Numbered from the stretch's first letter, positions 3,798-44,747 are shown. The stretch is DNA of 64,000 nt from Patescibacteria group bacterium (GCA_019744845.1 JAIETW010000001.1:177999-241998), one strand, 5' to 3'. The notes: generated by a model from the sequence alone, not told the origin. Numbers and translations are program-made.

Positions 3798-6491
3798 TTA
3801 TTCTACACGTACCGTAAAGCGAGGGTTAATTACCTTCCCTTCGTGGAAGAATTCGCCGAAGACCGTGTAAAGACCAGGACTTGGAAAGAGCACGTGCGCT
3901 TCTACCACGGGACCGAAGGTTGGTGGAGGCGGTAGGTGCGTGTGTGCGGTCGTAGAAGATACTTGAGTGACTGGTGCACCAAGTGGATGCACTTCTCCAT
4001 GGGTGTGTATGAACTCAGAGAGATCGTTCTTCACCACCGCAAGGTGCATCGCAGCAGCCAAGTATGGCTCCATGTTCAGTACATCCTCTCCGTCTTTAGT
4101 AATGCGGTAGGTGAGTGTGGTGTAGGAGTTTGCGAGCGGCAGCGGGGAGCGGAGAGTGACATCGTATCCATCAAAGCTTCCTTCCGAAGGATAGGTGGCA
4201 ATGTCATTCATCGCTGCATTCCCTTTTACGGTAATCGTGTACGTACGACTCTCCTGCTTCAGTCCATGCGCATAATCAATCGCAAGGATGTAGGTACCGG
4301 CACGTGGAAAGGTGAAGCTCCGTTCAAAGCGAGGAGCATTTGATTCATCATCAGGGTGCACGTGGAAGAATTCTTTCATATCTGCACTCACAATCACCAT
4401 ATGCACGAGCTTCTCGTGTATGACTGAGAGCACGGCAGGCTCTCCATCTGCGTCATTAATCGTGTATTCAAAGGTCACGGGAACTCCTGCAGTGATATTC
4501 GTGAGGTCGTTTGCGAATGCAATCTCTGATCCTGTCTGGGACTTCAGATACCGATACTCTCTCGCATCAGAGATGTGGAAGGAACCACCGAGCGCCATAC
4601 ACCCTTCCTCTGCGACTGAGGACACCGGAATGCCGTTACGTGCAGGAAGCATGACGTGCCAGCCATTCCCGTCTGCCAGACATTCCTTCTTGAATGAGTT
4701 CCCAAAGAGGTACTGGAGTGCCCCGATTATTTGGCTCAGGATTAACAGAGTGACAATGAATGCAATTCCATACCTGAAGACTGAATTACGCTCCTGTAGC
4801 GGCGGATATGGGCCTCTAACGAGCCTTGCAAGGTATATAGCGGCAATGATGCTAAGAATTGCGAGCGCCATCATCACCAGGGTGAAGAGATCTATGTCTC
4901 TTCCCTCGTCTTTAATGAAATCTGCCTTGGTGACGGTAAATGTTGCCCGTGCATCGTAGCCACTTTCCTGGGGCTGGATAACGGAGAGTGTGTGCGTGCC
5001 ATTGGTGATGAGAGCAAGAGGGAATACGTATCCCCCATCATATCTGCGCTCAAGCTCTAGAAGCGTTCCCTCTTCGCTTCCACCGTCTAGAGAGACGGTC
5101 GGCATGACCTTCCCTTCACTTGTAAGGAGTACCTTCTCATCCTCATGTGGTGCAGGCGCGACCGCGATCTCTATTCCCTGGTCGCGTACCGAGTATGCTG
5201 GCTGCATGCCATGCAGTGGTGGTGAGGTGATGATCATGAGTGAGGAGAAGAAGATCACCAGCACTCCTGAAGCGAACTCTGCGGGCAAGGTGTAAGACAG
5301 GAACTTACTGAACCACTGCGGACGGTATCGGTGCGCGATGAGGTGATACGCAAGAAGTGCAATTGCGACTATGAGGGATGCAGCAAGCGGAAGGAATCGC
5401 TCTCCCCAGAGAGTCGTGGAGATATTGGCAAAGTCTTTCAAGTGAAGCCAGATGATGTAAGCGCCGGTAACTCCTGCAAGACCGAAGGAAAGCGCGAGGA
5501 GTGAGAACGCTCGTGGGAATACGTCTCGGAGCTTCTCTCTGAAGGTTCTCCAGAGATACGCGACGGAGAGAATGCCGATGATTCCCTCCCACAAATCTTT
5601 TCCAATGAGATGGAATACGTTTACGAGTACACCAAGATCAGGAAGGAAGCTGCTTGCGGTCGCGTGACTTACCTTTGCGCGGTAGTACGCAAAGACAAGA
5701 AGAAGTGCAAAAAGAATCCATTCAGAGGTCGTGAACTTCTCTGCAAGCTGTATCACCTTCTTCCGGAAGAAGAACACGACTCCAATCAATGCTCCTGCGA
5801 TCATTCTGATTACCGTTGCTGATCCTGAGACTATCGCGAAGTAGAGCGAAAGCGCTTCCGCAAATGGAATCTGATTTAGATCTGCCAGTTCACTCGTTTT
5901 TAGAATGATGTGTCCCCCGCCACCAATGAGAATGAGAAGGACGCCAAGTGCAATGAAGAACGCGTACCCCTTCCGTACCAGTGCATCCTCTCGGTACTTT
6001 CTGAATACAGAGGCAAAGAGCACAATCACTCCCCATAGAATGGAGTTCCCAAGAAGCTCCACGAATATCATGAACGCCTCTGGTACTGCAGAGATCTGCA
6101 CCACCTCAAAGGAAGAAGAGTTAGAGGAAGGAATGGCAATGCCTTCTCCTATCACATACGCATATCCTCCCTTGGTGAAGTGTCCGTCGTCAGAAGACAC
6201 CACACTCCACGAGACAAAGTACGCACCGTCTTCTGCCGATGCTACTGGCACACTGAGTACATAGGGATTCTCTTCTACGACTGCCTCTCCAGTCGTGATC
6301 TCTGTCCCTGCATCGTCTTTTACCTGTATACGACTTGCCCCTGGCTCTACTCGCTCACTGAAGCGAATAGATACTTCGGTGGGCGCTTCGATGAGTACCG
6401 CGGAAGACTCTGGCACATACTCCACGGGAGTGGCGTGTGCAGACACGCCAAGCGGGAGGAGAATGATGAGTGTGATAAGTAGTGTTTTCAT
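3798..6491 (-). CDS. Copper transport/resistance fusion protein CopC-CopD with a C-terminal YtkA-like domain (YcnJ-like architecture)
   Basis: 897 aa. Signal peptide, then a CopC-like beta-sandwich whose mature N-terminus is H (SAHATPVEY) and which carries the VSWSVVSSDDGHFTKGGYAYVIG motif. This is followed by about 8 transmembrane helices (CopD-like). The C-terminal soluble His-rich region carries FFHVHPDDE and EFIHTHGEVHP. Confidence 0.6.
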   Translation of the reverse strand: MKTLLITLIILLPLGVSAHATPVEYVPESSAVLIEAPTEVSIRFSERVEPGASRIQVKDDAGTEITTGEAVVEENPYVLSVPVASAEDGAYFVSWSVVSSDDGHFTKGGYAYVIGEGIAIPSSNSSSFEVVQISAVPEAFMIFVELLGNSILWGVIVLFASVFRKYREDALVRKGYAFFIALGVLLILIGGGGHIILKTSELADLNQIPFAEALSLYFAIVSGSATVIRMIAGALIGVVFFFRKKVIQLAEKFTTSEWILFALLLVFAYYRAKVSHATASSFLPDLGVLVNVFHLIGKDLWEGIIGILSVAYLWRTFREKLRDVFPRAFSLLALSFGLAGVTGAYIIWLHLKDFANISTTLWGERFLPLAASLIVAIALLAYHLIAHRYRPQWFSKFLSYTLPAEFASGVLVIFFSSLMIITSPPLHGMQPAYSVRDQGIEIAVAPAPHEDEKVLLTSEGKVMPTVSLDGGSEEGTLLELERRYDGGYVFPLALITNGTHTLSVIQPQESGYDARATFTVTKADFIKDEGRDIDLFTLVMMALAILSIIAAIYLARLVRGPYPPLQERNSVFRYGIAFIVTLLILSQIIGALQYLFGNSFKKECLADGNGWHVMLPARNGIPVSSVAEEGCMALGGSFHISDAREYRYLKSQTGSEIAFANDLTNITAGVPVTFEYTINDADGEPAVLSVIHEKLVHMVIVSADMKEFFHVHPDDESNAPRFERSFTFPRAGTYILAIDYAHGLKQESRTYTITVKGNAAMNDIATYPSEGSFDGYDVTLRSPLPLANSYTTLTYRITKDGEDVLNMEPYLAAAMHLAVVKNDLSEFIHTHGEVHPLGAPVTQVSSTTAHTHLPPPPTFGPVVEAHVLFPSPGLYTVFGEFFHEGKVINPRFTVRVE

Positions 6492-17997: not shown

Positions 17998-18891
17998 TTG
18001 CCCCGCCGAAGACAGGTATACTTACAGAATAGTATGGCGATAGCGCTCCGACAACTCTCCCCGGACGAATATCCGCAGGGACTCCGAGAAATTCCAAAGC
18101 CACCAGAGAAACTCTGGATGCTTGGAGAGTGGGCGCCGAAGGGTACGAAGTACCTCACGGTGGTCGGTTCTCGTGCCGCCACACCCTATGGAAAAGAGAT
18201 GTGCACGAAACTTATTCAAGGATTGAAGGATTACCCCGTCTCCATTGTTTCCGGGCTCGCACTCGGTATAGACGCGATCGCACATAAGGCTGCACTGGAT
18301 GCCGGCATGCACACGATTGCCGTTCCCGGCTCAGGACTTTCAAGTAATGCGATCTATCCAAGGAGTAATGCAGAGCTTGCGAAAGATATTCTCACCAAGG
18401 GTGGTGCACTTCTCTCTGAACACGAGCCAGATCACAAAGCAGAGATCCGTGACTTCCCTTCACGTAACCGAATCATGGTCGGTATCTCTGATGCCGTGCT
18501 CATGATTGAAGCCGGAGAAAAGTCTGGCACCCTCATTACCGCGCGACTCGCAGGGGAATACAACAGAGATCTTCTCTGTGTCCCACATCGTGCAGGAGAC
18601 CCACATGGATTTGGTTCGCATCTTTTCATCCGCCTTGGTGCCGCACTAATAACTGAACCTAAACACATTCTTGAAGCACTCGGTATTCCTGAAGAGCGTA
18701 ATGGTCCACTAATGCTTCCGCTTCTAGACGGAATAGAAAAGGATATCTATGGCATGCTCCATGCCCCACTCACCAAAGCAGATCTCCTTCGCAGACTTGA
18801 AGGGAATGAAGATCAGGCAGAGTCCGCACTCGTGACTCTAGAACTCAAAGGCCTTATAAAGGAAGGTATGGGTATGTGGCAACGCGTATGA
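17998..18891 (+). CDS. dprA: DNA processing protein DprA/Smf
   Basis: Rossmann-like DprA core (VVGSRAATPYG...GLALGIDAIAHKAAL). Confidence 0.8.
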   Translation: MPRRRQVYLQNSMAIALRQLSPDEYPQGLREIPKPPEKLWMLGEWAPKGTKYLTVVGSRAATPYGKEMCTKLIQGLKDYPVSIVSGLALGIDAIAHKAALDAGMHTIAVPGSGLSSNAIYPRSNAELAKDILTKGGALLSEHEPDHKAEIRDFPSRNRIMVGISDAVLMIEAGEKSGTLITARLAGEYNRDLLCVPHRAGDPHGFGSHLFIRLGAALITEPKHILEALGIPEERNGPLMLPLLDGIEKDIYGMLHAPLTKADLLRRLEGNEDQAESALVTLELKGLIKEGMGMWQRV

Positions 18892-19394
18892 AATGGATAG
18901 GCATTAGCGGAAGCCAGAAGGTAAACGAGGAGATGGAACAGGATGTCCGAAAGGACGTTCAGAACATCCTCGCTGAGGGTAACGGCATATTGGTTGGAGG
19001 CGCCTTGGGCGTAGATTCCTTTGCCCTAGAGGAGGCGCTCTCCATAGACCCTGAAGCGCACTATATAAAGGTATATCTCCCTGCCACCCTAGAACGCTAT
19101 GCCGCCCACTACCGACGCCGTGCAGAGGAAGGAGTAATCTCCAAAGACCAGGCCGAAACCTTGATCGGACTCCTCACCAAAGCCAAGAATGACCATGCCG
19201 TTTCCTTTACGGAACACCCTGAAAACACGGAAATGAATCAAACCACCTACTACGAGCGAAACAGCGCAATCGTTTCCGCAGCTGATGAAATACACGCCTT
19301 CCAATCTAATAACAGCAAGGGCACACAAGACACCATAGATAAGGCGAAGACAAAGGGTATTCCAGTCATCGTGTACTCGTATTCAGTCTCCTAA
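18876..19394 (+). CDS. DprA/SLOG-like Rossmann-fold protein, hypothetical
   Basis: 172 aa. ILVGGALGVDSFALEEAL resembles the DprA/SLOG nucleotide-binding core. Confidence 0.35.
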   Translation: MATRMKWIGISGSQKVNEEMEQDVRKDVQNILAEGNGILVGGALGVDSFALEEALSIDPEAHYIKVYLPATLERYAAHYRRRAEEGVISKDQAETLIGLLTKAKNDHAVSFTEHPENTEMNQTTYYERNSAIVSAADEIHAFQSNNSKGTQDTIDKAKTKGIPVIVYSYSVS

Positions 19395-26421: not shown

Positions 26422-27279
26422 ATGATAGCATCCGAGCTCATGAGCAGCAAAACACGCATTATCTGCGTCATTGGCCCCACCGCATCAGGAAAGACTGCAA
26501 AGGCCGTCGCACTCGCTAAAGAGCGTGACGGAGAGGTTATTTCCGTCGACTCACGTCAGGTATATAGAATGCTTGATATTGGTACTGAGAAAGCCACAAA
26601 AGAGGAGATGGATGGTATCCCACACTATCTAATAGACGCGGTTGATCCTCGCGAGATTTATAGCGCAGGAGATTTCGTTACTGATGCGAACTCCCGCATC
26701 GCGGACATAGCCGCCCGAGGTAAGACTCCGATCCTAGCTGGTGGTACCCACTTCTATTTTGATGCGCTCTTGAATGGACTTCCCAAGGAAACTCCCGCTG
26801 ATCCTGAATTCCGAAAGACACTTGAAGCCCTTTCTGATGAAGAGCTCTTTGCCCGCATACAGGCACAAGATCCGCGCCGTGCAGAAAAGATTGATCCACA
26901 CAATCGCCGTCGTCTTACTCGCGCACTTGAAGTGATTCAAAAGCACGGACAGGTACCTGAACGTACACCCTCAGACACATATGAAGTGGAATGGGTGGTG
27001 CTTATGCCTGAACGAGAAGAACTGCGCGCGCGTCTTGAGAAACGACTCAAGGATGCCTTTGCGAAAGGGCTGATAGAAGAAGTGCGTCAGGTACGCGAGT
27101 ACGTCGGTGATGAGCGTCTTAATGAGCTAGGTCTTGAATACAAAGTGATCGGAGAATACCTCCGCGAGGAAAGGACCGAAGAGTCACTCATTCCTGCACT
27201 GACTGCCAAACTCTGGCAGTACGCAAAGCACCAGATGAAGTGGATGCGGAAACTACGCTTACCAACCAATACAGCCTGA
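26422..27279 (+). CDS. miaA: tRNA dimethylallyltransferase. The start is probably an internal Met; the track ORF begins at 26359.
   Basis: P-loop GPTASGKT, then DSRQVYRMLDIGTEK. Confidence 0.8.
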   Translation: MIASELMSSKTRIICVIGPTASGKTAKAVALAKERDGEVISVDSRQVYRMLDIGTEKATKEEMDGIPHYLIDAVDPREIYSAGDFVTDANSRIADIAARGKTPILAGGTHFYFDALLNGLPKETPADPEFRKTLEALSDEELFARIQAQDPRRAEKIDPHNRRRLTRALEVIQKHGQVPERTPSDTYEVEWVVLMPEREELRARLEKRLKDAFAKGLIEEVRQVREYVGDERLNELGLEYKVIGEYLREERTEESLIPALTAKLWQYAKHQMKWMRKLRLPTNTA

Positions 27280-28416
27280 TCCGTCGCGCTGATGTTCAGA
27301 AAGGTATACGGAGAAGTGTCCCTGCGTTCCATACTTGAGCACTTTTACCTGTGCACCGTAATTTGGAACTCCGTCAAGAATCTGCTGGCATTGTGATGAG
27401 GAAAGAGATCCATTTTCGTACACCACGTATAGACCTTGGTTTTTCAGCCGGATAGCCATTTCACTAATTTGTGACGTAGAAGGACTGCCGCTCGTACGGG
27501 CAATATCTACACACGTACCATCGCTGTGACACGACGCAGAGTGGTTGGTAGTTGGTGGCCACATTTCTGTAATTCGCCAACCACTATTAGTTCCTACCGC
27601 TACCTGCACTTTTGAAAGGAGAGATGCGTTTACGTAGCAGTAATCAAGTGGTGGTGAAAAGGACTGCACGCCATCTTGCCCTCCCGAGAGACGACAGCCG
27701 TTCTGTGCGGGAGTCTTGTGTGACACGTTCGCATTCACTTTATTACAGTTTGAACAGCCAGCCGGTGACCCAGTCGCAGTGGGCGCTTCACACGCATCGC
27801 CCGTATCATCATTGTCCGCATCAGCCTGATTTGCATTGGCAGTCGTTGGGCAGTTGTCTTCGGTATCAAGAATGCCATCGCTATCGTCATCCGTATTTGC
27901 AGGATCGGCTGGAGTGGCAGGTGTTGCCGGCTCCACCCCTCCGGATGACTGAGCCTGTCCTGACTGCTGCTGATTTGGCTGGATACAGTAATCCTTTTCC
28001 TCATCAGCAATGAGAATGTCTTCCCATGGGCCAAACTGTCCATTTCCTGGGTTATAGATTGCTTTCATGAGGTAGTCTACGAAGAGCCAGGCGGAAAGCA
28101 CAATCGCCAAACCAACCACCGCATTCAAAAGCATCGTGCGTCCCTTCTCACGATTCCCTGGATTGAGCGGAGAAAGCATCCAGATCGCACCTGCGTATGC
28201 GATCACCAAGGTCGCAATCACAATACCAAACGCAATGGCGAGATTCATTGCATTCTGGAGGGTCTCAAGTCCACATCCCCAGTCAGGAGCACTGTCTTCG
28301 CACTGACACTTCTCGCTAATGAGCGGCTCAAACATCCCATCGGCCAATACCGTGCCTGGCATGATGAAAACAACAGAGAGTATAAGCACAGGGAGCAGCA
28401 CCCAGAGCTTCTTCAT
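27259..28416 (-). CDS. Secreted/membrane protein with thrombospondin type-3-like calcium-binding repeats, hypothetical. The start is trimmed to MKKLWVLL because the longer track ORF runs through tRNA-Trp.
   Basis: Signal peptide plus two transmembrane helices. DDDSDGILDTEDNCPTTANANQADADNDDTGDACE matches the DxDxDGxxDxxDNCPxxxNxxQxDxDxDxxGDxC repeat. Cys-rich C-terminal domain. Confidence 0.45.
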   Translation of the reverse strand: MKKLWVLLPVLILSVVFIMPGTVLADGMFEPLISEKCQCEDSAPDWGCGLETLQNAMNLAIAFGIVIATLVIAYAGAIWMLSPLNPGNREKGRTMLLNAVVGLAIVLSAWLFVDYLMKAIYNPGNGQFGPWEDILIADEEKDYCIQPNQQQSGQAQSSGGVEPATPATPADPANTDDDSDGILDTEDNCPTTANANQADADNDDTGDACEAPTATGSPAGCSNCNKVNANVSHKTPAQNGCRLSGGQDGVQSFSPPLDYCYVNASLLSKVQVAVGTNSGWRITEMWPPTTNHSASCHSDGTCVDIARTSGSPSTSQISEMAIRLKNQGLYVVYENGSLSSSQCQQILDGVPNYGAQVKVLKYGTQGHFSVYLSEHQRDGSGCIGW

Positions 28417-28483
28417 ATGTTCGTAGTATACGGTATGCCACAGGGCTAAATGGCTTTGCCCACAGGCAGGATTACTGCTATCG

Positions 28484-28554
28484 TAGCCCCACTGGGCCCA
28501 TAGTTTAGTGGTAGAACAACGGTCTCCAAAACCGTTAGTCGAGGTTCGATTCCT
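28484..28554 (+). tRNA. tRNA-Trp (anticodon CCA)
   Basis: Acceptor GGGCCCA/UGGGCCC. Anticodon stem ACGGU/ACCGU with loop CUCCAAA. T-arm CGAGG-UUCGAUU-CCUCG. Discriminator G. Confidence 0.85.
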
Positions 28555-28588
28555 CGTGGGCCCGCTGATGAGCTCGTGGTGTACGATC

Positions 28589-29200
28589 ATGACTTTAAAC
28601 CCATTAGAAACACTTCTTCTTGTAATAGATGTGCAGGTAGACTTCTGCTCACCAGAAGGCCTTTCCGCAACCCGCGGAAGAGGCATGCATCAGATCACGG
28701 AGATGCTTCCCCGTCTTCTTACGTTTATTCCTATGGTGAAAGAAAAAGGAGTGTCAGTCGTATACACCCAAATGATAACGACCGAACACCCACCAGAAAA
28801 CTACATACTCGCAAGAAAGGTGAAAGGATTTGAAGATATCGCACGTGTCGGCACTCATGGTGCCGAGCTCTACATGGTCATTCCTGAGCAGGATGATGTC
28901 GTGATAGTTAAGGAGCGTTTTGATGCATTTGCGGGCACTACACTCGCCACTCTGTGTGCAGAACGAAAGATCCGCAACATCCTTATTACGGGTGTACGAA
29001 GTGACATATGCGTGGACGCGACCGCAAAACGCGCATTTGCAGAGGGATATAACGTGTTTGTCGTAAAAGACTTAGTCGCAACTTCTGATGAACGTCTTAA
29101 GCAACACGAAGTTATCCTTGAAACGTTCGGAACATACTCAGGCTTTGTTATATCAAGTAAAGAAGCTGAACAGAGCTTGAGTTCCACAGATAGCCAATAG
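28589..29200 (+). CDS. Isochorismatase-family cysteine hydrolase
   Basis: LLVIDVQVDF, and a catalytic Cys in ITGVRSDICV. Start set after tRNA-Trp. Confidence 0.7.
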   Translation: MTLNPLETLLLVIDVQVDFCSPEGLSATRGRGMHQITEMLPRLLTFIPMVKEKGVSVVYTQMITTEHPPENYILARKVKGFEDIARVGTHGAELYMVIPEQDDVVIVKERFDAFAGTTLATLCAERKIRNILITGVRSDICVDATAKRAFAEGYNVFVVKDLVATSDERLKQHEVILETFGTYSGFVISSKEAEQSLSSTDSQ

Positions 29201-36759: not shown

Positions 36760-36831
36760 CGAAAACACCGGCCCGGTGGCGAAGTGGTAACGCTGGAGTC
36801 TGCAAAACTCCCATGCGCGGGTTCAATTCCC
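36760..36831 (+). tRNA. tRNA-Cys (anticodon GCA)
   Basis: Acceptor GGCCCGG/CCGGGCC. Anticodon stem GGAGU/ACUCC with loop CUGCAAA. Discriminator U. Confidence 0.85.
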
Positions 36832-36858
36832 GCCCGGGCCTCAAAATGTGGTATCGTC

Positions 36859-36951
36859 TCCGACAGATGCCGAGGTGATGGAATTGGTAGACATACAGGG
36901 CTTAAAACCCTGAGAAGGAATAAATCCCTTCGTGTGGGTTCGATTCCCACC
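36859..36951 (+). tRNA. tRNA-Leu (anticodon UAA), type II, with encoded CCA
   Basis: Acceptor GCCGAGG/CCUCGGC. Anticodon stem CAGGG/CCCUG with loop CUUAAAA. 21-nt variable arm. A-CCA at the 3' end. Confidence 0.8.
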
Positions 36952-37006
36952 CTCGGCACCAAAAACGGTTGAATAAATAGGAGAGGTCATATACTATTTA
37001 GCCCAA

Positions 37007-37079
37007 GCGCCCATAGCTCAGTTGGTAGAGCAGATCCCTCTTAAGGATAAGGTCCCAGGTTCGAGCCCTGGTGGGCGCA
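37007..37079 (+). tRNA. tRNA-Lys (anticodon CUU)
   Basis: Acceptor GCGCCCA/UGGGCGC. D-arm UAGCUCAGUUGGUAGAGC. Anticodon loop CUCUUAA. T-arm CCAGG-UUCGAGC-CCUGG. Confidence 0.8.
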
Positions 37080-37127
37080 CAGAAGTGTGCGGACAAATGA
37101 GAACAAATAGTGTACTCTCTTAGTCAC

Positions 37128-37209
37128 GCCGGGGTGGTGAAATTGGTATACACGCCTGCCTTAGGAGCAGGTACCGCAAGGTGTGGAGGTTCGAGTCCTC
37201 TCCCCGGCA
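37128..37209 (+). tRNA. tRNA-Leu (anticodon UAG), type II
   Basis: Acceptor GCCGGGG/CCCCGGC. Anticodon stem CCUGC/GCAGG with loop CUUAGGA. Long variable arm. Confidence 0.8.
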
Positions 37210-37671
37210 CTAAAAATCAGCAATGACGAGCTTCGTCATTCCCATCATTTTCTTGAAGGCTCCCGGCTTCTTGATAAGCGCTTCCCAGTTCTCTGGCACT
37301 ACCTGCCAGCTGAGTCCGTACTTGTCCTTAAGCCAGCCACAGACACTTTCCTGACCACCGTTAGACGTCAGTGTATTCCAGTAGTAATCAATCTCTTCCT
37401 GATCTTTACAGGAAATCATAAGTGAGATTGCTTCGTTAAATTTGAACTCCGGCCCTGCGTTAATCGCAATGTAGCGCATGCCCAAAATCTCAAACTCAAT
37501 CGTGAGCACCTCCCCTGCCAAATCCTTTTGAAAATCTGCAAGACCTTCCTCTTCACTGTTGGGGTAATAGTACGTTGAAATTATCTTCCCTCCTGGAAAG
37601 ACACTGAGATAGTAATCCACCGCGTCTTTGGCGTTTCCATCAAACCACAAATTGGGAATGATCCTTTGCAT
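37210..37671 (-). CDS. VOC-superfamily (glyoxalase/PhnB-like) protein
   Basis: IIPNLWFDGNAKDAVDYY N-terminus, typical of PhnB-like VOC proteins. Confidence 0.55.
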   Translation of the reverse strand: MQRIIPNLWFDGNAKDAVDYYLSVFPGGKIISTYYYPNSEEEGLADFQKDLAGEVLTIEFEILGMRYIAINAGPEFKFNEAISLMISCKDQEEIDYYWNTLTSNGGQESVCGWLKDKYGLSWQVVPENWEALIKKPGAFKKMMGMTKLVIADF

Positions 37672-37910
37672 TAGACTCCGTTTACCGTTGCGCTAATGAT
37701 GCCTACGATGGCCCGTGCACCAAAGATAATCACGAGACCAATGAGTCCCCAGATGATGTGCTTCTTTCCTTTCTCTCGCTTCTCAGAGTCACCAGCGCCG
37801 CCAATAAACTCCACGACACCCCAAATAAAGACCACGAAGGCCGCAAGAGCGAGAAGAGTAATAATCGGATCAATAATCGCGACCTGCACACGCATGATGA
37901 AGTCATCCAT
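37671..37910 (-). CDS. Small two-helix pilin-like membrane protein (TrbC/VirB2-like T4SS-pilin family), paralogue 1 of 6
   Basis: 79 aa. FVVFIWGVVEFIGGAG..EKREKGKK..IWGLIGLVII shared motif. Confidence 0.5.
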   Translation of the reverse strand: MDDFIMRVQVAIIDPIITLLALAAFVVFIWGVVEFIGGAGDSEKREKGKKHIIWGLIGLVIIFGARAIVGIISATVNGV

Positions 37911-37925
37911 ATAGGCTCAAGTATA

Positions 37926-38192
37926 TCACCGGCAAATCGCACTCCCGATACCTACCGCACCATATATCCACTCCACAATGCCCCAGACCACGATCATGAA
38001 GATAAAGGCAAAGATTGCCCAGAGCATGAGACCTTTTGCCATCTCTCGCGCAAACTCGTCATACTCGCCTGCAATTGCATAGTAGAAAATCGCCCAGATA
38101 AATGCGATGAAAGAGGCACTGAAGAGCGCGGGAATAAGAAAGCCGTGGAGTGCAGGATCTATAAGTCCACAGAAGATACCGTTTGGAAACAT
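37926..38192 (-). CDS. Small two-helix pilin-like membrane protein, paralogue 2 of 6 (the most divergent)
   Basis: 88 aa. FIAFIWAIFYYAIAGEYD..REMAKG..LWAIFAFIFMIVVWGIV. Confidence 0.4.
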   Translation of the reverse strand: MFPNGIFCGLIDPALHGFLIPALFSASFIAFIWAIFYYAIAGEYDEFAREMAKGLMLWAIFAFIFMIVVWGIVEWIYGAVGIGSAICR

Positions 38193-38252
38193 CTCTCTAT
38201 ACTAACAAGAAACCCCGCATGTGCGGGGTTTCTGTTGGTGGAGGTGGGGAGA

Positions 38253-38606
38253 CTAACGACCTGGGGTCGGAGTATCCGGGAAGTTTGGCACCGTGGTGTT
38301 GAAGTCCAAGGTGTTGGTTACAAGGTTGATGAGACCCCAGACGGACACCATCACAACGAAGCCGATAATACCCCAGAACATGAGGGACTTACCCTGCTCG
38401 CGACTCTCATTGTCCTGCTTTCCTGCGATGAAGAAGCGGAACACTCCCCAAATAAACACGATGAAGGCAAGAGCAAAGACAATCGGTACGAGCACGTCAT
38501 TAATAATGGTCAAAATAAGACCGGCAAGATCGTAGATGCTGTCTACCGCTGCAAATGAGACAAGCGGTGTAAGCAAGAGTGCACTAGTGAATGCGAATAT
38601 TTTCAT
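38253..38606 (-). CDS. Small two-helix pilin-like membrane protein with signal peptide, paralogue 3 of 6
   Basis: 117 aa. VPIVFALAFIVFIWGVFRFFIAGKQDNESREQGKSLMFWGIIGFVVMVSVWGLINLV. Confidence 0.55.
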   Translation of the reverse strand: MKIFAFTSALLLTPLVSFAAVDSIYDLAGLILTIINDVLVPIVFALAFIVFIWGVFRFFIAGKQDNESREQGKSLMFWGIIGFVVMVSVWGLINLVTNTLDFNTTVPNFPDTPTPGR

Positions 38607-38683
38607 GAGGTATATGGTTACGTATCTAAGAATATGCTGGAACGGGTGGGAGTCAATAGAGCTTGTAGGCGCGTGTGGAAAAG

Positions 38684-39172
38684 CTAATCGTCGTCAAAGT
38701 TCACACACATCTTAGGATCTCGGTTCGTATCACAGTCATATCCGTGCGGACAGCGGTTAAACATGCTGCTACAGGCCGGCCCCACTGAGCCACGAGGAAT
38801 TGGGTTCTGATTGGTCACCACCGTTCTTCCTCCTCCGCCCTGCTGGGCCGGACTCCCAAAGAGACCCCCTTGCTGATATCCTGCCTGCCCACCAAAAAGT
38901 GGAAGCATCGGCTTGTGTTGCGTATCAAACCCAAGAGAGTTGATGATCAGGTTTACGATGCCCCAGAGAGAGAACATAAGCACAAAGCCAATAACGCCCC
39001 AGAGAACAAATTTCTTTCCCTCTTCGCGCTTCTCTTTATCCTCTCCTCCTGCGATGAAGAAGCGGAACACTCCCCACAGGAAGATAATGAAGGCAACAGA
39101 GAATATGAGCGGAACAAGGACCGAATCAATAAACCGGATGATCTCGTAGAAAAAGAGGGCGAGGTTCTGCAT
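38684..39172 (-). CDS. Pilin-like membrane protein with a Gly/Gln-rich, Cys-containing C-terminal extension, paralogue 4 of 6
   Basis: 162 aa. VPLIFSVAFIIFLWGVFRFFIAGGEDKEKREEGKKFVLWGVIGFVLMFSLWGIVNLI, followed by GGQAGYQQGGLFG...CSSMFNRCPHGYDCD. Confidence 0.55.
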   Translation of the reverse strand: MQNLALFFYEIIRFIDSVLVPLIFSVAFIIFLWGVFRFFIAGGEDKEKREEGKKFVLWGVIGFVLMFSLWGIVNLIINSLGFDTQHKPMLPLFGGQAGYQQGGLFGSPAQQGGGGRTVVTNQNPIPRGSVGPACSSMFNRCPHGYDCDTNRDPKMCVNFDDD

Positions 39173-39211
39173 ATATCAGTATGGTAGCAGATGCGGGAAT
39201 GAGACTATGGG

Positions 39212-39547
39212 TTATACACCCCCAGTAAGCACGGAGAGAAGAAGCTTCACAAGCCCCCAGACGGAGAAGAGGACGACAAAGCCAATGATGCCCCAGAAGA
39301 TAAACTTCTTACCCTCATTACGTTTCTCATCCTCCATTGAGAAGAGGAAACGCACCACGCCAATCAGGAACAAAAGGAACGCAATTGCATAGAGGAGAGG
39401 GACAACCACAAAGTCTACAAAGGGCACAATCTCCTGATTAACGATATATGCAAAGGTCATCTTGTTATTCGTGGGGATAGCTGGCTGCGCCGCTCCCGCC
39501 ACAAACGGAAGGACTGAGGCAGCGAAGAGATAAAAGAATCGTTGCAT
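39212..39547 (-). CDS. Pilin-like membrane protein with signal peptide, paralogue 5 of 6
   Basis: 111 aa. VPLLYAIAFLLFLIGVVRFLFSMEDEKRNEGKKFIFWGIIGFVVLFSVWGLVKLL. Confidence 0.55.
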   Translation of the reverse strand: MQRFFYLFAASVLPFVAGAAQPAIPTNNKMTFAYIVNQEIVPFVDFVVVPLLYAIAFLLFLIGVVRFLFSMEDEKRNEGKKFIFWGIIGFVVLFSVWGLVKLLLSVLTGGV

Positions 39548-39550
39548 GGT

Positions 39551-39895
39551 CTATGCCTGGAGAGAACCAACCGTAGACTGAATCACGAGTGAGATCGCTT
39601 GTGCACCAAGAAGCACCAAGCCTCCGATGACAGTCCACATAAGGGCTTTCTTTGCTTCAGAAATCTTCTCCTCGTTCCCCTGTCCGACGACAAAGAGGAA
39701 ACCGACGTACACGAGCATGAGGATCAAGACGATGGTGCCGATGTTAACCACTGCCTTGAGTACGAGTGCGAGTAGCTCTTCAATCGTTCCAACCTTAAGC
39801 GGATTCACGAGTCCTTCGCTCGCAAATACCATCATTGGCAGGAAAAGATAGGCAGAGAGGGAGAACGCAGATACTTTTTTGATCATTGAGGTCAT
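39551..39895 (-). CDS. Pilin-like membrane protein with signal peptide, paralogue 6 of 6 (divergent)
   Basis: 114 aa. LVYVGFLFVVGQGNEEKISEAKKALMWTVIGGLVLLGAQAI. Confidence 0.45.
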   Translation of the reverse strand: MTSMIKKVSAFSLSAYLFLPMMVFASEGLVNPLKVGTIEELLALVLKAVVNIGTIVLILMLVYVGFLFVVGQGNEEKISEAKKALMWTVIGGLVLLGAQAISLVIQSTVGSLQA

Positions 39896-41181
39896 CGTAG
39901 TGCAGCAGTTAGTGATTGATGCGCAGAAATAAGCGCAGAGGCGGCATCTCGTCGTCCTGTGGTTATGTTATCAATCATAGCAGAGAAGATAGAGTCGGTA
40001 GTTTGTGGCGCTGGGGAGAGCCATCCAGATGCAATGAGTGCCGCAGGATAGTAGACCTCTGCGAAGCGATCATCGGTCGTCGCGAGTAATTCGCGACGTG
40101 CAGGAGCCATGCCTGCCGCCGCAGCCGTTACTTCCATCGGCGCAGCAAAAGTGAGCGCGACCGCCGTACGGAATGCACCCTGAAAGTTTGCGCTCGCGCG
40201 CGGAATCGCAAGCGCGTACCCAAGTCCATAGGTCTTTGGGGCAACCGTAGTTGCCGGCTGTGGCACTGGTGCCATATCAAAGTCTAGATTGGGGTTAGAG
40301 GAAGAGAGCGTTTCCTGCTCAGACGCATAGCCGACATAGAAGGCCAAATCCCCTGCCAAGAATGCCTGACGTGAGGATGGGAGTGAACGATTCCAGGAGT
40401 AGACCGTCTTCACTGGGTTTGCAAACTGCGTATAGAAGTTAAGGGCAGAAACAGCAGGTGCGTTCCCTGTTGATTCAAGCGTGCCGCCAAGAGTAGAGAC
40501 TGCACGCTCTACATTTCCTTCGCTAATCGTCGTGCCCGCCTGCATAAGCAGGAGTGAAAGAATGCCGCGTGCATTCTGCACGTTTCCATATTCTCCAAAG
40601 GCAATCGCGCTCTTCACAATGCTCTGATCTGGCTGACGAGTGGTGAGGCGCTCTGCCATCGCGGTCACTGCCTCCCAATTGGTCGGTGGTGTCGGGATAC
40701 CCTGTGCAGAGAGCATGGTGCGGTTGTAGTAGAGCACGAGCGGGTCAACCGCAATTGGCATGCCGTAGAATCCTTCCGTTGCGAGGAAGTACTCATGAAT
40801 CGGTGTGTAGGTCGTCCTAAACGTACGCTCAGAAATACTGGTGTATGGAATGAGAGAAAGCTTTGCGACCTGAGAGAGGAGCTGTTCCTGCGTAATGACG
40901 ATGAGGTCAGGGCCATAGCCGGACGCAAGTGCTTCTGCGAGATTAGAATCAATCGCCTCTGCACTCATCTCTACATAGGACACCTCGTTATACTCCTTGT
41001 TGGTGCGTGAAAGGTTTTCAATACCCGCATCAACGGCGCTCTGTGGGAGTGATCCCCAGATTGTCACTGGTCCGACTGGTCCCCCACCGGTCGTACTGCC
41101 ATTAAAGGTGGCAAACAGGAAGAGCCCCATAAGCGCGGCAAGTCCAAACACGACAAGTACGATTATCTGAAAGGGCTTCAT
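39892..41181 (-). CDS. Extracellular solute-binding-protein-like protein (family 1 type), orphan: no permease or ATPase gene adjacent
   Basis: N-terminal anchor, then VTIWGSLPQ...EVSYVEMSAEA, typical of a sugar-type SBP N-lobe. 429 aa. Four-nucleotide overlap with the last pilin-like gene. Confidence 0.5.
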   Translation of the reverse strand: MKPFQIIVLVVFGLAALMGLFLFATFNGSTTGGGPVGPVTIWGSLPQSAVDAGIENLSRTNKEYNEVSYVEMSAEAIDSNLAEALASGYGPDLIVITQEQLLSQVAKLSLIPYTSISERTFRTTYTPIHEYFLATEGFYGMPIAVDPLVLYYNRTMLSAQGIPTPPTNWEAVTAMAERLTTRQPDQSIVKSAIAFGEYGNVQNARGILSLLLMQAGTTISEGNVERAVSTLGGTLESTGNAPAVSALNFYTQFANPVKTVYSWNRSLPSSRQAFLAGDLAFYVGYASEQETLSSSNPNLDFDMAPVPQPATTVAPKTYGLGYALAIPRASANFQGAFRTAVALTFAAPMEVTAAAAGMAPARRELLATTDDRFAEVYYPAALIASGWLSPAPQTTDSIFSAMIDNITTGRRDAASALISAHQSLTAALR

Positions 41182-41708
41182 GGTGCAGTAAAGAGTAAGG
41201 AATAATGATGCGGACCACCGCGGAATGCTTTTACTTTATGAAAGCCGTGATGAATGAACAGTTGTTCAGCATCGTGTTCTGAAATCACATGATCTTTGTG
41301 AGGACCTATGCCGCCATAGGCACCTGCCCAATCAACAACGAGAAGCTTCCCGCCTGACACAAGAATGCGCTTAATCTCCCCTATCGCATCATCCTTCTCA
41401 TTAAGCTGAAAGAGGGTGTTAGAGAGCACCACCGCATCAATGGAGAGGTCCTTAAGCTGAGTACCTCCTGCCTTTTCTACATCTCCCCACACCGTTTCTA
41501 TGTTCTTAAGACCCTTCTCCTCTGCACGGTCACGAATGCACTTCAGAACATCTTCTTGAACGTCTATGGCGTACACACGTCCCTTAGAGCCGACAATGTT
41601 TGCGGCAGCCAATGCGTAGTGTCCACTACCTGCACCAAGATCAGCGACCTTCATGCCATCACGAAGGCCCATCTGAAGAATGTTTGCGACGGGGTCAGCG
41701 AAACTCAT
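41178..41708 (-). CDS. Class I SAM-dependent methyltransferase
   Basis: Motif I VADLGAGSGHYAL, motif post-I VYAIDVQ. Confidence 0.65.
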   Translation of the reverse strand: MSFADPVANILQMGLRDGMKVADLGAGSGHYALAAANIVGSKGRVYAIDVQEDVLKCIRDRAEEKGLKNIETVWGDVEKAGGTQLKDLSIDAVVLSNTLFQLNEKDDAIGEIKRILVSGGKLLVVDWAGAYGGIGPHKDHVISEHDAEQLFIHHGFHKVKAFRGGPHHYSLLFTAP

Positions 41709-42278: not shown

Positions 42279-44747
42279 CTAGAGAGCGACCATTGAGGCA
42301 ATGGAGTCGCCTTCACGCATTTTCATAATGCGTACACCCTGCGTCGCGCGTGAGAGAGAAGGAATCTCTCCGGCAGATACACGGATCACCTGACCCTTCT
42401 TAGAGATGACCACAATTTCTTCAGTGGCATCTTCAGATCCCACAAGCACCTTGGCACCAATGATCTCTCCGGTCTTCGGGGTGACGTCTGCAGTCTTGAT
42501 ACCGGACCCACCACGACCCTGCACCTTATATTCATCCATTGAAGTCTTCTTACCGTATCCCTTGGCCATGATGATGAGGAGAGACGCATCCTTTGCGGCA
42601 CCAGACACCACTTCAGCAGAGACAACTTCATCCCCCTTCTTCACCGTCATACCGCGCACTCCTGCAGCCGTGCGACCCATGGCACGCACATCTGCTTCAT
42701 CAAAACGAATGCTCTGACCCTTTGAGGTCACAATTGAAATGCTGTCACCGTCTCCTGCGAGGTGCGCAGAAACCAGCTTGTCAGAACCCTTGAGGTTAAT
42801 CGCAATGATGCCGGAGCGACGTACATCGGCGAAGTTCTTTGCCTCTACTTTCTTCACGACTCCTGCTTCGGTCACCAAAAATACTGAGAGCGCATCACGT
42901 GCGGCACCCTTTGGTACGGCAAGCACGGAGGTCACCTTCTCATCCCCTGCAAGCGGAAGGAAGTTCATGATGCTCTTTCCCTTCGTGGCACGACGTCCTT
43001 CGGGAATGTCATACATCTTAGTCTGATATGCCTTTCCGTAGTCGGTAAAGAAGAGGAGCTCTGCATGCGCCGAGGCACTCAAGAAGTGCGTCACCACATC
43101 CTCTTCCTTGGTAGACATATCAATCACGCCAACACCTCCACGCTTCTGCGCCTTATACTCGCTTGGATTGGTGCGCTTCACATAGCCACCCTGCGTAATC
43201 ACGAGGACGGACTCTTCGTCTGGTACCAAATCTTCTACTGAAATATTCTTCACCCCACCCTTTACGATCTTGGTGCGACGATCATCTCCGTACTTATCCT
43301 TGACCGCAATAAGCTCAGTCTTCACCACATCAAGAATGTTCTTTGCAGAAGAGAGAATCTTCTTAAGCTTCTTGATGAGCTCCTGAATCTCAGTGAGCTC
43401 ATCCTCAATCTTCTGACGCTCAAGACCCGCAAGCGTCTGAAGACGCATCGCGAGAATCGCAGCTGTCTGACGCTCAGAGAATCCAAACTTCTTACGGAGC
43501 TGGAGATCTGCGTCAGGCACATCCTTAGACTTCTTGATGATCGCAATGACTTCATCAATGTGATCAAGTGCCTTGGAAAGACCAAGAAGAATGTGTTCAC
43601 GCTCTTCTGCTTTGCGAAGTTCGTATTCTGTACGACGCTTCACGATCACGCGACGATGCTCAACAAAGTTCTCAAGAATGCTCTTCAATGAAAGGGTCTG
43701 CGGCACGCCGTCCACCAGTGCGAGCATGTTGTAGTGGAAAGTCGTCTCAAGCTCCGTGTACTTGAAAAGATTGTTCAATACTGCCTGAGGATGTGCGGTT
43801 CCCTTCAATTCCACGACGACACGAATATCTTCTGCAGACTCATCACGAAGATCCTTAATACCTTCAAGCTTCTTATCACGCACCAAATCAGCAATGCGAG
43901 TGATCAAGTCCGCCTTGTTCACGCGGAATGGAATGGAGGTGATGATGATAGAAGTGTTCTTCTTATCCTCTACAATTTCTGCGACACCACGACAGACCAC
44001 CGGCCCCTTACCTGAGGCATAGGCATGCTTGATGTCTGTCTGATTGAAGGCAATACCGCCGAGTGGGAAGTCAGGGCCCTGAATGAATTTCAAAAGATCG
44101 TCGGTCGTCGCTTCTGGATCCTCAATAAGATGAATAGAGGCATCGCACACCTCACGCAAATTGTGCGGAGGAATGTTCGTCGCCATACCCACCGCAATAC
44201 CCAGCGTACCGTTCAATAGAAGGTTTGGTGCGGCTGCAGGAAGCACGGTGGGCTCCTTCAAGGTGCCATCGTAGTTTGGATTCCACTCCACCGTATCCTT
44301 ATCAAGATCGGCAAGCATTTCTCCACCCACCTTAGACATCTTTGCTTCGGTGTAACGATAGGCCGCAGGTGGATCTCCATCAATAGAGCCGAAGTTTCCC
44401 TGACCAATCACGAGTGGGTAGCGGGTAGAGAAATCCTGCGCGAGTTTTACCATCGCGTCATACACCGCCACGTCACCGTGCGGGTGATACTTTGCAATCA
44501 CGTCTCCCACCACTGCCGCAGACTTCTTGGTCTTTGCAGTAGGCCCCAGTCCGTTCTCCTGCATGGAGTACAAAATGCGACGATGCACGGGCTTCATGCC
44601 GTCGCGCACGTCAGGAAGTGCACGTGCCGTAATCACTGACATCGCGTAGTCCAGGTATGAGGACCGCATCTCTGCGGTGATTGATTGGTCTATGACGTTG
44701 ACGCGTTCCTCCGGAAGCGGCACCTCTTCTGTCTTCTTCTTCGCCAT
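42279..44747 (-). CDS. gyrA: DNA gyrase subunit A
   Basis: [26 protein letters not shown] and [20 protein letters not shown] (QRDR region). C-terminal beta-pinwheel repeats. Confidence 0.9.

Follow-up and report, generated by a model that had tools for sequence, protein, structure and literature searches.

We describe a cassette, found in considerably more than a hundred genomes of ultrasmall Patescibacteria, in which genes for a methyltransferase and a solute-binding-protein-like (SBP-like) protein precede an array of VirB2-like two-helix pilins. The copy studied here lies in a 64,000-nucleotide stretch of DNA from a Patescibacteria group bacterium (the window, from the first letter of which all positions are counted), and is most likely the local version of a lineage-wide, co-transcribed operon of the Paceibacteria (Parcubacteria/Kaiserbacteria-type Patescibacteria). 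VirB2-like pilin arrays have already been published from Patescibacteria (PMC12102498, PMC10633639), and as an array the present one is of this familiar kind. Unlike the published arrays, it stands in one operon with SBP-like and methyltransferase genes, which go unmentioned in those accounts, and we found no description of its fixed five-subunit composition with an attached binding protein in the literature searched. We give roughly even credence to the reading that the pilins make up a filament or conduit assembled by a type IV secretion system (T4SS) encoded elsewhere, with the SBP-like protein as a membrane-anchored ligand-binding accessory.

The gene string and its hairpin proteins

The features of the locus, from the head of the cassette onward, are as follows.

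41178-41708, minus strand: methyltransferase, 176 aa, class I SAM-dependent (Pfam Methyltransf_31/11/25)
39892-41181, minus strand: SBP-like protein, 429 aa; TM anchor, Gly-rich linker and MalE-like family-1 solute-binding fold
39551-39895, minus strand: putative pilin of class 1 (position 1), 114 aa; signal peptide and hairpin; PF18895 41.6 bits
39212-39547, minus strand: putative pilin of class 2 (position 2), 111 aa; signal peptide and hairpin; PF18895 41.6 bits
38684-39172, minus strand: putative pilin of class 3 (position 3), 162 aa; leaderless hairpin, Gly/Gln linker and four-cysteine knob; PF18895 43.1 bits
38253-38606, minus strand: putative pilin of class 4 (position 4), 117 aa; signal peptide, hairpin and ~18-aa tail; PF18895 44.0 bits
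37926-38192, minus strand: extra class-4-like paralogue, 88 aa; PF18895 25.0 bits, under the 26.6-bit cutoff
37671-37910, minus strand: putative pilin of class 5 (last position), 79 aa; hairpin without leader or tail; PF18895 46.6 bits
37210-37671, minus strand: PF06983 (PhnB/VOC-like) gene; Pfam 146.8 bits
37222-37240, minus strand: terminator-like hairpin, 8-bp stem then T run; consensus match only
27259-28686, minus strand: PF18895-domain gene, the seventh such protein in the window (Pfam matches, alignment)

The preliminary description had reported six paralogous two-helix ORFs of 79-162 aa on the minus strand and an ORF of 429 aa, all of which we recovered with the same coordinates and lengths. 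Small intergenic gaps run all along the gene string of the cassette, and the stop of the SBP gene overlaps the start of the first pilin gene (ATGA). This 4-nt overlap, together with the conserved linkage detailed below, sustains the earlier claim of an operon with the SBP gene, except that the latter is not its head: its own start is overlapped by the stop of the methyltransferase gene (again ATGA), which precedes it and heads the unit. At the opposite end, the stop of the last pilin gene (37671-37910) overlaps the start of the PF06983 gene by 1 nt (TAATG); this gene was not found at the corresponding place in the related loci L002 and L004, and is a passenger peculiar to this lineage. The string of co-oriented genes has the terminator-like hairpin (37222-37240) at its 3' end. 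Apart from the array, the long ORF at 27259-28686 carries a PF18895 hairpin at aa 141-206 as well as a thrombospondin type 3 repeat, and its C-terminal region of ~200 aa contains Cys. A tRNA-Trp gene (28494-28565) overlaps the 5' end of this ORF, translation of which probably begins further in, at MKKLWVLLPV near 28416.

Profile searches bore out the suspected resemblance of the six array proteins to T4SS pilins. Five of them exceed the 26.6-bit cutoff of PF18895 (T4SS_pilin), a computationally defined family, with 41.6-46.6 bits, and the sixth falls short by 1.6 bits. The NCBIfam NF045849 model ('pilin-like conjugal transfer protein'; cutoff 40 bits) matches all six at E 4e-11 to 1e-5, with the product of 38253-38606 passing at 42.4 bits and the other five reaching 25-38 bits. 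The similarity to TrbC/VirB2 asserted earlier holds by way of the PF18895 family, but not at the threshold of PF04956 (TrbC; 27.9 bits), which none of the six attains; the most TrbC-like of them, encoded by 39551-39895, scores 26.8 bits (E 6e-6, profile positions 6-94 of 98), and the other five have E-values of 0.05 or worse. Neither sequence-profile nor fold searches retrieved a solved VirB2 or TraA pilin. All six proteins display two or more hydrophobic segments by hydropathy, with a charged loop between the helices in the alignment, the consensus of which (VPL..AF..FIWGV...FI.G..D.EKRE.GKK...WG.IGFV) agrees with that given previously. Signal peptides, attributed beforehand to most of the proteins, are recognizable in just three (39551, 39212 and 38253), the other three beginning at the first helix. 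The AF2 model of the class 3 protein (38684-39172; named 'pilin' by NCBI, MBY0110604.1) has a two-helix hairpin (helices 2-42 and 46-79), and its Gly/Gln-rich tail with four cysteines, already remarked upon, is modeled as a disordered linker (94-121, pLDDT <50) leading to a small beta knob (123-160, pLDDT about 88-90). Of 24 close orthologues, about 17 retain the knob motif, C..CP..DC..C.N.DG. These comparisons support placing the six proteins in the VirB2/TrbC-like T4SS_pilin family, which is typical of CPR bacteria. To our knowledge, no pilus has been observed in any Patescibacterium.

Conservation of the cassette and the five pilin classes

Among 80 species-level genomes (L006-L085), between one and seven pilin ORFs directly follow the SBP gene in 75, with at least three in 74 and a mode of five; in the five loci without a pilin ORF the contig ends 9-358 nt after the SBP gene. 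The gap between the two is mostly -4 to +10 nt, and in 77 of the 80 loci the SBP gene is immediately preceded by a methyltransferase homologue. A reverse search starting from a pilin recovered the SBP gene directly upstream in 48 of the 49 metagenome contigs with room upstream. Homologues of the array genes are all from Patescibacteria MAGs, as are, at the level of the phylum, the best 120 database matches of the methyltransferase (176 aa, 65-95% identical, bearing generic names only); the SBP-like protein has more than 900 homologues, the best 120 of which are 51-100% identical to it.

The synteny extends further: gyrA precedes the cassette in 55 of 56 loci, and infB follows it in 58 of 59. 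Given that this entire neighborhood is conserved, the connection between the SBP-like protein and the pilins is one that we infer, and their conserved adjacency may be due to a gene order that is frozen and not to a function in common. Hence, it is possible, if less than probable, that the pilins are T4SS subunits while the SBP-like protein and the methyltransferase are unrelated to them, the former being the receptor of a distant ABC importer; the fact that some 20 genomes have no more than 100 nt between gyrA and the methyltransferase gene that follows it is in keeping with this. However, nearly all junctions within the cassette overlap or span fewer than 30 nt, whereas its flanks measure anything between 0 and 3.7 kb upstream and between 0.4 and 5 kb downstream, and in two loci (L050 and L069) one flank differs with the cassette still intact.

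Orthologue clustering sorts the pilins into five groups, each with its own position in the array, and every group is represented in 70-77 of some 78 arrays. Class 1 (74 genomes) occupies position 1 in 74 of its 75 members and shows variable N-terminal extensions, with a median of 76 aa ahead of the hairpin, and class 2 (76 genomes) occupies position 2 in 71 of 76 members. The C-terminal tails of class 3 are variable, at least two cysteines being found in 49 of 92 members. Class 4 (74 genomes) is tightly kept in length (median 120 aa) with a fixed tail of about 18 aa, and class 5 (70 genomes; median identity 57%) closes the array in 68 of 70 cases. Between genomes, the median identity of the classes is 49-59%, as against 52% for the SBP-like protein and 58% for RbfA. 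The most diverged of the six local genes, 37926-38192, clusters with only three other loci, being shared with the nearest relatives alone, and elsewhere it is matched best by class 4 proteins (about 38-40% identity); by this comparison it is a lineage-specific extra copy nearest to class 4, and the only such copy in the array. That the classes are tied to position, have architectures of their own, and are conserved to the same degree as the SBP-like protein speaks against antigenic variation and favors a set of five non-redundant subunits, which would have diverged anciently.

The SBP-like protein and the secretion machinery

The assignment of the 429-aa protein as SBP-like was upheld by a match to PF13416 (62.2 bits), by a PDB profile search (E 1e-11), and by structure prediction, with Foldseek returning sugar SBPs (mannan-, maltose- and trehalose-binding) as best matches (E 4.5e-17 to 1e-14). 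Its identity to solved SBPs is only 13-19%, and the AF2 model has a mean pLDDT of 66.7, with aa 174-266 poorly predicted. It resembles the CUT1 (MalE-like) ABC substrate-binding proteins in family (PF13416/PF01547) and in its Foldseek matches, and this ordinary fold and family signature is what one would expect of a receptor for a distant importer. Orphan SBP genes are, moreover, common. Conversely, it differs from CUT1 proteins in its N-terminal TM anchor (aa 1-26, the single hydrophobic segment being at aa 1-19), which is unusually conserved (0.65, versus 0.62 for the domain), and in having no permease or ATPase within 10 kb of its gene in the loci examined. The absence of a nearby ABC partner, as first reported for the window, extends to 165 related loci, in none of which did we find an ORF with the ABC-ATPase motif (Walker A and LSGGQ); a 'dearth of transporters' has been reported for these genomes (PMC4508563). 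These observations count against the importer receptor. The preliminary description had suggested a tip or adhesin role; the conserved anchor suits an accessory tethered to the membrane better than it would a tip protein that is free. Against the structure proposed below, the SBP-like protein may serve an ABC permease encoded elsewhere.

A Pfam scan of window ORFs of at least 120 aa detected no VirB3, VirB4, VirB6, VirD4, or ABC permease/ATPase, so that the earlier statement on VirB4, VirB6 and VirD4 stands at this scope; the window ORFs without a Pfam match are not polytopic membrane proteins by hydropathy. Likewise, L002 and L004 contain no VirB3, VirB4 or VirB6 gene, and virB4 is not within 10 kb of the cassette there. 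In favor of a T4SS encoded elsewhere, Table S1 of PMC12102498 records VirB4 for two other carriers of the cassette, C7867-001 (L024) and C7867-004 (L012), and PF18895 genes occur near virB4 in 1135 assemblies. In S. epibionticum the pilin series within the T4SS cluster is essential (PMC10633639).

A proposed T4SS-built structure, its alternatives, and its relatives

Comparable arrays in Patescibacteria number 441, of 2-11 genes each (Quinonero-Coronel et al. 2025, PMC12102498). The present genes form an array as defined there, i.e., at least two VirB2/PF18895 genes of low identity in tandem or one gene apart. Like S. epibionticum ML1 (Wang et al. 2023, PMC10633639), our locus has six tandem PF18895/VirB2-like two-helix genes; the ML1 array, however, is inside a T4SS cluster, whereas this one occupies the gyrA-infB interval, and the 64-kb window contains no T4SS gene. 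With the VirB2/TrbC/TraA pilins (PF04956) of the T-pilus and F-pilus, the proteins share small size, two hydrophobic helices, a charged loop, and leaders that are cleavable in some; they differ in comprising five differentiated subunits instead of one major pilin, in the lack of a VirB5-type tip protein and of adjacent VirB3/4/6, and in their monoderm host. The 'Mbov_0395 family pilin-like conjugal transfer protein' (NF045849) of Mycoplasma ICEs similarly comes from wall-poor or monoderm hosts with reduced genomes, but is a single-copy gene of a mobile element rather than a chromosomal five-gene set in a housekeeping neighborhood. The T4SS of both host groups are of the MPF-FATA type (PMC12102498).

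In the T4SS-built structure that we propose, the hairpins would insert in the cytoplasmic membrane with the charged loop toward the cytoplasm, cleavable leaders being apparent on three of them, and, judging from homology, a T4SS machine encoded elsewhere would extract them for polymerization into a filament or conduit at the surface. The positional orthology of the classes and the architecture peculiar to each suggest that the bare, length-invariant classes 4 and 5 supply the bulk building blocks, and that classes 1 and 3 are the displayed parts by virtue of their variable extracellular extensions, including the Cys knob in this genome; such a subunit logic would be akin to one major pilin with several minor pilins. 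Type IV pili, the T2SS and Com pseudopili have about five differentiated pilins in fixed gene order, some bare and others with extra domains. The likeness to these sets is in design logic only, as neither the protein family nor the assembly machine is related. Through the overlap of stop and start codon, synthesis of the SBP-like protein would be coupled to that of the first pilin, and the methyltransferase is likely to be co-transcribed with both. Tethered by its conserved TM helix, the SBP-like protein would bind its ligand, which is probably a saccharide, on or next to the structure, as a receptor or capture element and not as part of a classical neighboring ABC importer.

Alternatively, the hairpins could form a hetero-oligomer that works with the SBP-like protein in the membrane with no filament and no need for a T4SS, either as a 'bindosome'-like surface assembly or as a new SBP-dependent uptake or sensing complex. 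The strict two-way linkage of the SBP gene with a fixed stoichiometric set of five hairpins, the conserved TM helix, and the distance of the cassette from virB4 in the annotated loci L002 and L004 are all compatible with this. SBP-dependent non-ABC transporters do exist, namely TRAP and TTT; we know of no transporter made of 2-TM subunits. There is also a precedent in the Sulfolobus Bas system, the bindosome, in which surface deployment of sugar-binding proteins needs co-encoded small pilin-like proteins that organize them (PMC3047682). Nevertheless, the Bas pilin-like proteins are of the type IV kind, with their own ATPase and membrane protein, whereas the small proteins here are VirB2-like, and the Bas SBPs bear class III signal peptides, which the present protein (MKPFQIIVLVV...) lacks, its putative -1 residue being P instead of G or A and its +5 residue not E. 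As the hairpins are homologous to PF18895, with members beside virB4 in more than 1000 assemblies, and to the Mycoplasma ICE pilin-like family, and as the cassette holds no energizing component, we regard such a membrane complex as unlikely.

The idea of interchangeable pilins diversified for antigenic, host-adhesion or host-range variation, favored in the preliminary description and also raised in PMC12102498 as variability for host adaptation, could appeal to the low within-array identity (20-58% here; 25% on average and at most 54% in the published arrays), the variable extensions of classes 1 and 3, and the virB2 paralogue families of Bartonella and Anaplasma, but is very improbable and largely refuted, since each paralogue has its positional orthologue in nearly every array with cross-species identity equal to that of the SBP-like protein and RbfA, gene number and order are fixed with only one recent duplicate here, and the DNA repeats in which the paralogy also shows (93-194 nt, ~626 nt apart) are old ones at 62-72% identity and not of the recombination type.

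Returning to the T4SS-built structure, a more far-reaching version, which we consider doubtful, would have the VirB2-like filament of the Paceibacteria as a component of a device for capturing nutrients or ligands, with the SBP-like protein stoichiometrically coupled to the five-subunit structure and binding a host-derived saccharide. It might then hand the saccharide to the filament or the T4SS channel, or ride the filament in the manner of a bindosome. If true, this would be the first genetic link of a T4SS-type pilus to SBP-mediated uptake, and this in bacteria that otherwise lack transporters.

Layout of the array and its genomic surroundings

The preliminary description correctly delimited six minus-strand ORFs and an ORF for a 429-aa solute-binding-protein-like protein (SBP), which together with an adjacent methyltransferase gene constitute a cassette:

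41178-41708 (-): gene for a 176-aa methyltransferase, upstream of the SBP gene
39892-41181 (-): SBP gene
39551-39895 (-): pilin-like hairpin, class 1
39212-39547 (-): pilin-like hairpin, class 2
38684-39172 (-): pilin-like hairpin, class 3
38253-38606 (-): pilin-like hairpin, class 4
37926-38192 (-): pilin-like hairpin, extra copy
37671-37910 (-): pilin-like hairpin, class 5
37240-37222 (-): terminator-like hairpin closing the co-oriented gene string

In agreement with the architecture described earlier, the six hairpins share an alignable core of some 75 residues, comprising a hydrophobic helix, a charged loop with the motif D.EKRE.GKK and a second hydrophobic helix, and hydropathy analysis finds at least two hydrophobic segments in each. 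Most had been credited with signal peptides; just three (39551, 39212 and 38253) begin with a signal-peptide-like segment. Pairwise protein identity among them is 20-58%, and paralogy is detectable at the DNA level as repeats of 93-194 nt with 62-72% identity, spaced by about 626 nt and far above chance. On this sequence evidence, the duplications behind the array are old.

The stop codon of the SBP gene overlaps the start codon of the first pilin gene within the tetranucleotide ATGA, bearing out the proposed operonic linkage through a 4-nt overlap, and the methyltransferase and SBP genes overlap by ATGA again. The cassette lies within a co-oriented string that opens with gyrA (42279-44747) and closes with a PF06983 gene (37210-37671), neighboring genes being separated by -4 to 77 nt. 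A scan for sigma-70-like promoters yielded 3 sites against 7.4 in shuffled sequence and hence no usable promoter call. The strand opposite the cassette carries, directly downstream of it, a cluster of four tRNA genes (Cys, Leu-TAA, Lys and Leu-TAG; 36770-37210, +), the last of which lies flush against the end of that PF06983 gene. A 266-aa antisense ORF (37758-38558, +) covers three of the pilin genes and is probably a by-product of opposite-strand codon composition.

In agreement with the first observation, a Pfam scan of ORFs of 120 aa or more detects no VirB4, VirD4 or VirB6 in the window, and the ORFs without a Pfam match are not polytopic; likewise, neither an ABC permease nor an ABC ATPase that could partner the SBP is encoded there. 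The rest of the window is an ordinary Patescibacterium chromosome, with genes for IF-2, RbfA, GyrA, ClpB, TopA, RelA/SpoT, SerRS, FtsA, FtsZ and nine tRNAs. Two other loci in it deserve mention. An 897-aa protein (3798-6491, -) combines an N-terminal CopC domain, the only part recognized by Pfam, with about nine hydrophobic segments, and resembles a fusion of the CopC-CopD type carrying a long additional stretch. Two consecutive overlapping ORFs (17998-18891 and 18876-19394, +) both match DNA_processg_A (DprA), meaning that dprA is split or frameshifted or that a complete copy is followed by a partial duplicate.

Affinities of the hairpin proteins, the SBP and the methyltransferase

The assignment of the hairpins to TrbC/VirB2-type pilins holds with regard to the T4SS_pilin family (PF18895), whose curated threshold of 26.6 bits is passed by five of the six at 41.6-46.6 bits, the sixth (37926-38192) scoring 25.0 bits. 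Membership in the TrbC/VirB2 family proper (PF04956) is narrowly missed, with a full-length match of 39551-39895 at 26.8 bits against a threshold of 27.9. All six also match NF045849, the NCBIfam model of the Mycoplasma ICE 'Mbov_0395 pilin-like conjugal transfer protein' (E 4e-11 to 1e-5), one of them exceeding its cutoff, and NCBI names the product of 38684-39172 'pilin' (MBY0110604.1). The AlphaFold model of the latter is a two-helix hairpin (helices 2-42 and 46-79), and its Gly/Gln-rich four-cysteine tail, which had been picked out from the sequence, is modeled as a disordered Gly/Gln linker followed by a small, confident beta knob holding the four cysteines. This hairpin is too simple for fold comparison to discriminate between families. 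A PDB sequence-profile search with the pilin alignment found no VirB2 or TraA; its best match, the FliL transmembrane segment (E 7.6e-4), was dismissed as a composition-type match.

The array belongs to the known class of Patescibacterial VirB2-like pilin arrays, and we infer that it works like VirB2/TrbC pilins. An essential series of predicted pilins lies within the T4SS cluster of Southlakia epibionticum (Wang et al. 2023, PMC10633639), and a 2025 review calls the six pilins of its strain ML1 'structurally conserved but sequence-divergent', speculating on an uptake conduit. When PF18895 and PF04956 were used to search 3,035 genomes of Patescibacteria, 441 arrays came to light, each holding 2-11 pilin genes that are about 25% identical to one another, and versatility towards host strains was suggested (Quinonero-Coronel et al. 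2025, PMC12102498). In itself, the pilin array is unremarkable for the phylum, and it is already annotated. The same study describes MPF-FATA systems as being without VirB2 homologues and leaves open the source of the Patescibacterial pilins (PMC12102498); the match to the NF045849 profile suggests that a VirB2-like gene exists in at least the Tenericutes branch of the MPF-FATA class.

A seventh PF18895 hairpin occurs 10 kb from the array in a far larger protein (27259-28686, -), whose true start is probably the internal MKKLWVLLPV near 28416. Besides its signal peptide and the hairpin, it carries a calcium-binding thrombospondin type 3 repeat and, at the C-terminus, some 200 residues that include cysteines. 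In appearance it is a pilin with a displayed domain attached. The pilin search also recovered homologues of 251-284 aa (P0168-P0171).

The 429-aa protein matches PF13416 at 62 bits, retrieves mannan, maltose and trehalose binders in Foldseek searches (E down to 4.5e-17) and gives E 1e-11 in a PDB profile search. As judged by sequence and predicted structure, in which aa 174-266 are of low confidence, it is a divergent MalE-like family-1 solute-binding protein. While it belongs to this family by sequence and fold, the partner genes that define the family are absent from its locus. It has one N-terminal transmembrane helix and no lipobox. Homologue searches with the methyltransferase returned only lineage-specific orthologues with generic names.

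Conservation of the cassette and the five pilin classes

We recovered more than 900 SBP homologues, the best 120 of which are 51-100% identical; the named hosts among these are almost without exception Patescibacteria, Paceibacterota or Parcubacteria MAGs, one bearing the depositor label Bacillota. Scanning one genome per species yielded at least 524 relatives, of which the best 80 were analyzed, pilin ORFs being called with an HMM derived from the six pilins of the window. Pilin ORFs directly follow the SBP on the same strand in 75 of these 80 loci, mostly with a gap of -4 to +10 nt, and the remaining five are contigs ending 9-358 nt past the SBP. Among these best 80 of at least 524 relatives, there are five pilins in 48 loci, six in 14, and one to seven overall. 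A methyltransferase homologue is found directly upstream of the SBP in 77 of the 80. At four related loci (L056, L071, L078 and L082), the first detected pilin lies 346-801 nt past the SBP stop, reflecting either a divergent class 1 gene missed by the HMM or an insertion.

In the reverse direction, a metagenome scan with the class 3 pilin alignment gave 80 contigs, 49 of which had at least 1350 nt upstream and were scored: the SBP precedes the array in 48. The single exception (L146) is a two-pilin pair without an SBP in an unrelated context (ROK, Band_7, EVE, MFS). The SBP and the five hairpin classes are thus linked in both directions across more than 120 genomes and contigs. Two related loci (L086 and L088) come from the Hainich wells, a groundwater site rich in these organisms. 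Some cassette-bearing genomes (L008-L011, L025, L039 and others), with SBPs 50-66% identical to that of the window, carry the depositor label 'Candidatus Saccharibacteria', and once 'Bacillota'; since sequence similarity and synteny group them with the Paceibacteria type, these labels are probably mistaken.

When all array members were clustered by reciprocal best hits, five large groups emerged; any one of them occurs in 70-77 of about 78 arrays and is tied to a single array position (1, 2, 3, 4 or last). The extra copy, 37926-38192, is common only to the closest relatives and is nearest to class 4.

Architectures of the five pilin classes
Class 1: leader and an N-terminal extension that varies between orthologues
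Class 2: short
Class 3: C-terminal tail variable and in many members cysteine-containing; four-Cys motif C..CP..DC..C.N.DG retained by about 17 of 24 close orthologues
Class 4: leader and fixed 18-aa tail; 114-164 aa, median 120
Class 5: bare hairpin of about 85 aa, no leader

Median identities between window proteins and their counterparts are 49-59% for the five pilin classes, 52% for the SBP, 58% for RbfA, 65% for the methyltransferase, 68% for IF-2 and 81% for GyrA, which indicates that the hairpins are under ordinary purifying selection. Positional orthology and class-specific architectures fit an assembly of hetero-subunits.

Interpretation of the SBP-pilin linkage

A coupled function, in which the hairpins form a T4SS-assembled structure with the SBP as its ligand-binding element, has in our estimate about an even chance of being correct. 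The hairpins would insert into the membrane and be assembled by a distant T4SS into a filament or conduit, in which bare subunits might form the bulk while classes 1 and 3 display their extensions; the SBP, tethered by its helix, would serve as a ligand-binding element at this structure. As VirB4 is listed for Parcubacteria C7867-001 and C7867-004 (Table S1, PMC12102498), both of which carry the cassette (L024 and L012, respectively), a T4SS is encoded elsewhere in cassette genomes; in Paceibacteria it has been placed near dnaA (PMC12102498). The original description of these two genomes reported a dearth of transporters (PMC4508563). Functional analogies, without any family match, are offered by the Sulfolobus bindosome, where small pilin-like proteins deploy SBPs (PMC3047682), by major/minor pilin sets and by the archaeal Ced system, where a VirB2-like CedA1 pilus serves import. 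A class III (prepilin-type) signal on the SBP, raised by the bindosome analogy, was ruled out on sequence.

It is unlikely, though to be taken seriously, that the SBP is an unrelated neighbor of the pilins: the gyrA-to-infB neighborhood is syntenic in nearly all loci, and the conserved adjacency is therefore weaker evidence than it would be elsewhere. Against this, junctions within the cassette are tight while its flanks vary by kilobases, the cassette is intact in both loci with one differing flank (L050 and L069), and no ABC-ATPase-like ORF occurs in 165 related loci.

The SBP anchor (aa 1-26) is conserved like the globular part (mean top-residue frequency 0.65 vs 0.62 in 83 orthologues), with a near-invariant (K/R)-P-F-Q preceding the helix and F12, G19, F23 and A24 conserved within it. 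A plain anchor would not usually be so conserved, which hints at a specific membrane partner; the segment may act as an interaction face within the membrane or as a site of processing. That the SBP and hairpins instead form a pilus-independent, membrane-embedded complex seems to us distinctly improbable. The original proposal of a set diversified for antigenic variation is the least credible: position-tied orthologues, purifying selection and class-specific architectures do not fit it, and throughout a large lineage the set keeps to five conserved subunits that differ from one another.

We did not find the fixed five-class composition and the obligate linkage to the SBP (and methyltransferase) described previously: neither gene is mentioned beside arrays in Wang et al. 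2023, Quinonero-Coronel et al. 2025, the 2025 review or a PNAS perspective, and a full-text literature search combining array and SBP/methyltransferase terms found nothing, an absence that is no proof of novelty. Were the linkage only frozen synteny, the finding would shrink to another annotated pilin array. The fixed five-subunit set shifts the focus from antigenic switching to stoichiometry and to major versus minor roles. Reviews speculate that the essential T4SS of Patescibacteria, with its pilin arrays, is a conduit for uptake from the host (PMC12857230, PMC11665869). A ligand-binding protein encoded together with the pilins in upwards of 120 independent genomes and contigs makes the idea of uptake or host recognition approachable, both by way of what the SBP binds and by way of any physical contact with the hairpins. 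The five-class composition and the SBP linkage bear on the question of pilus function in the Patescibacteria.
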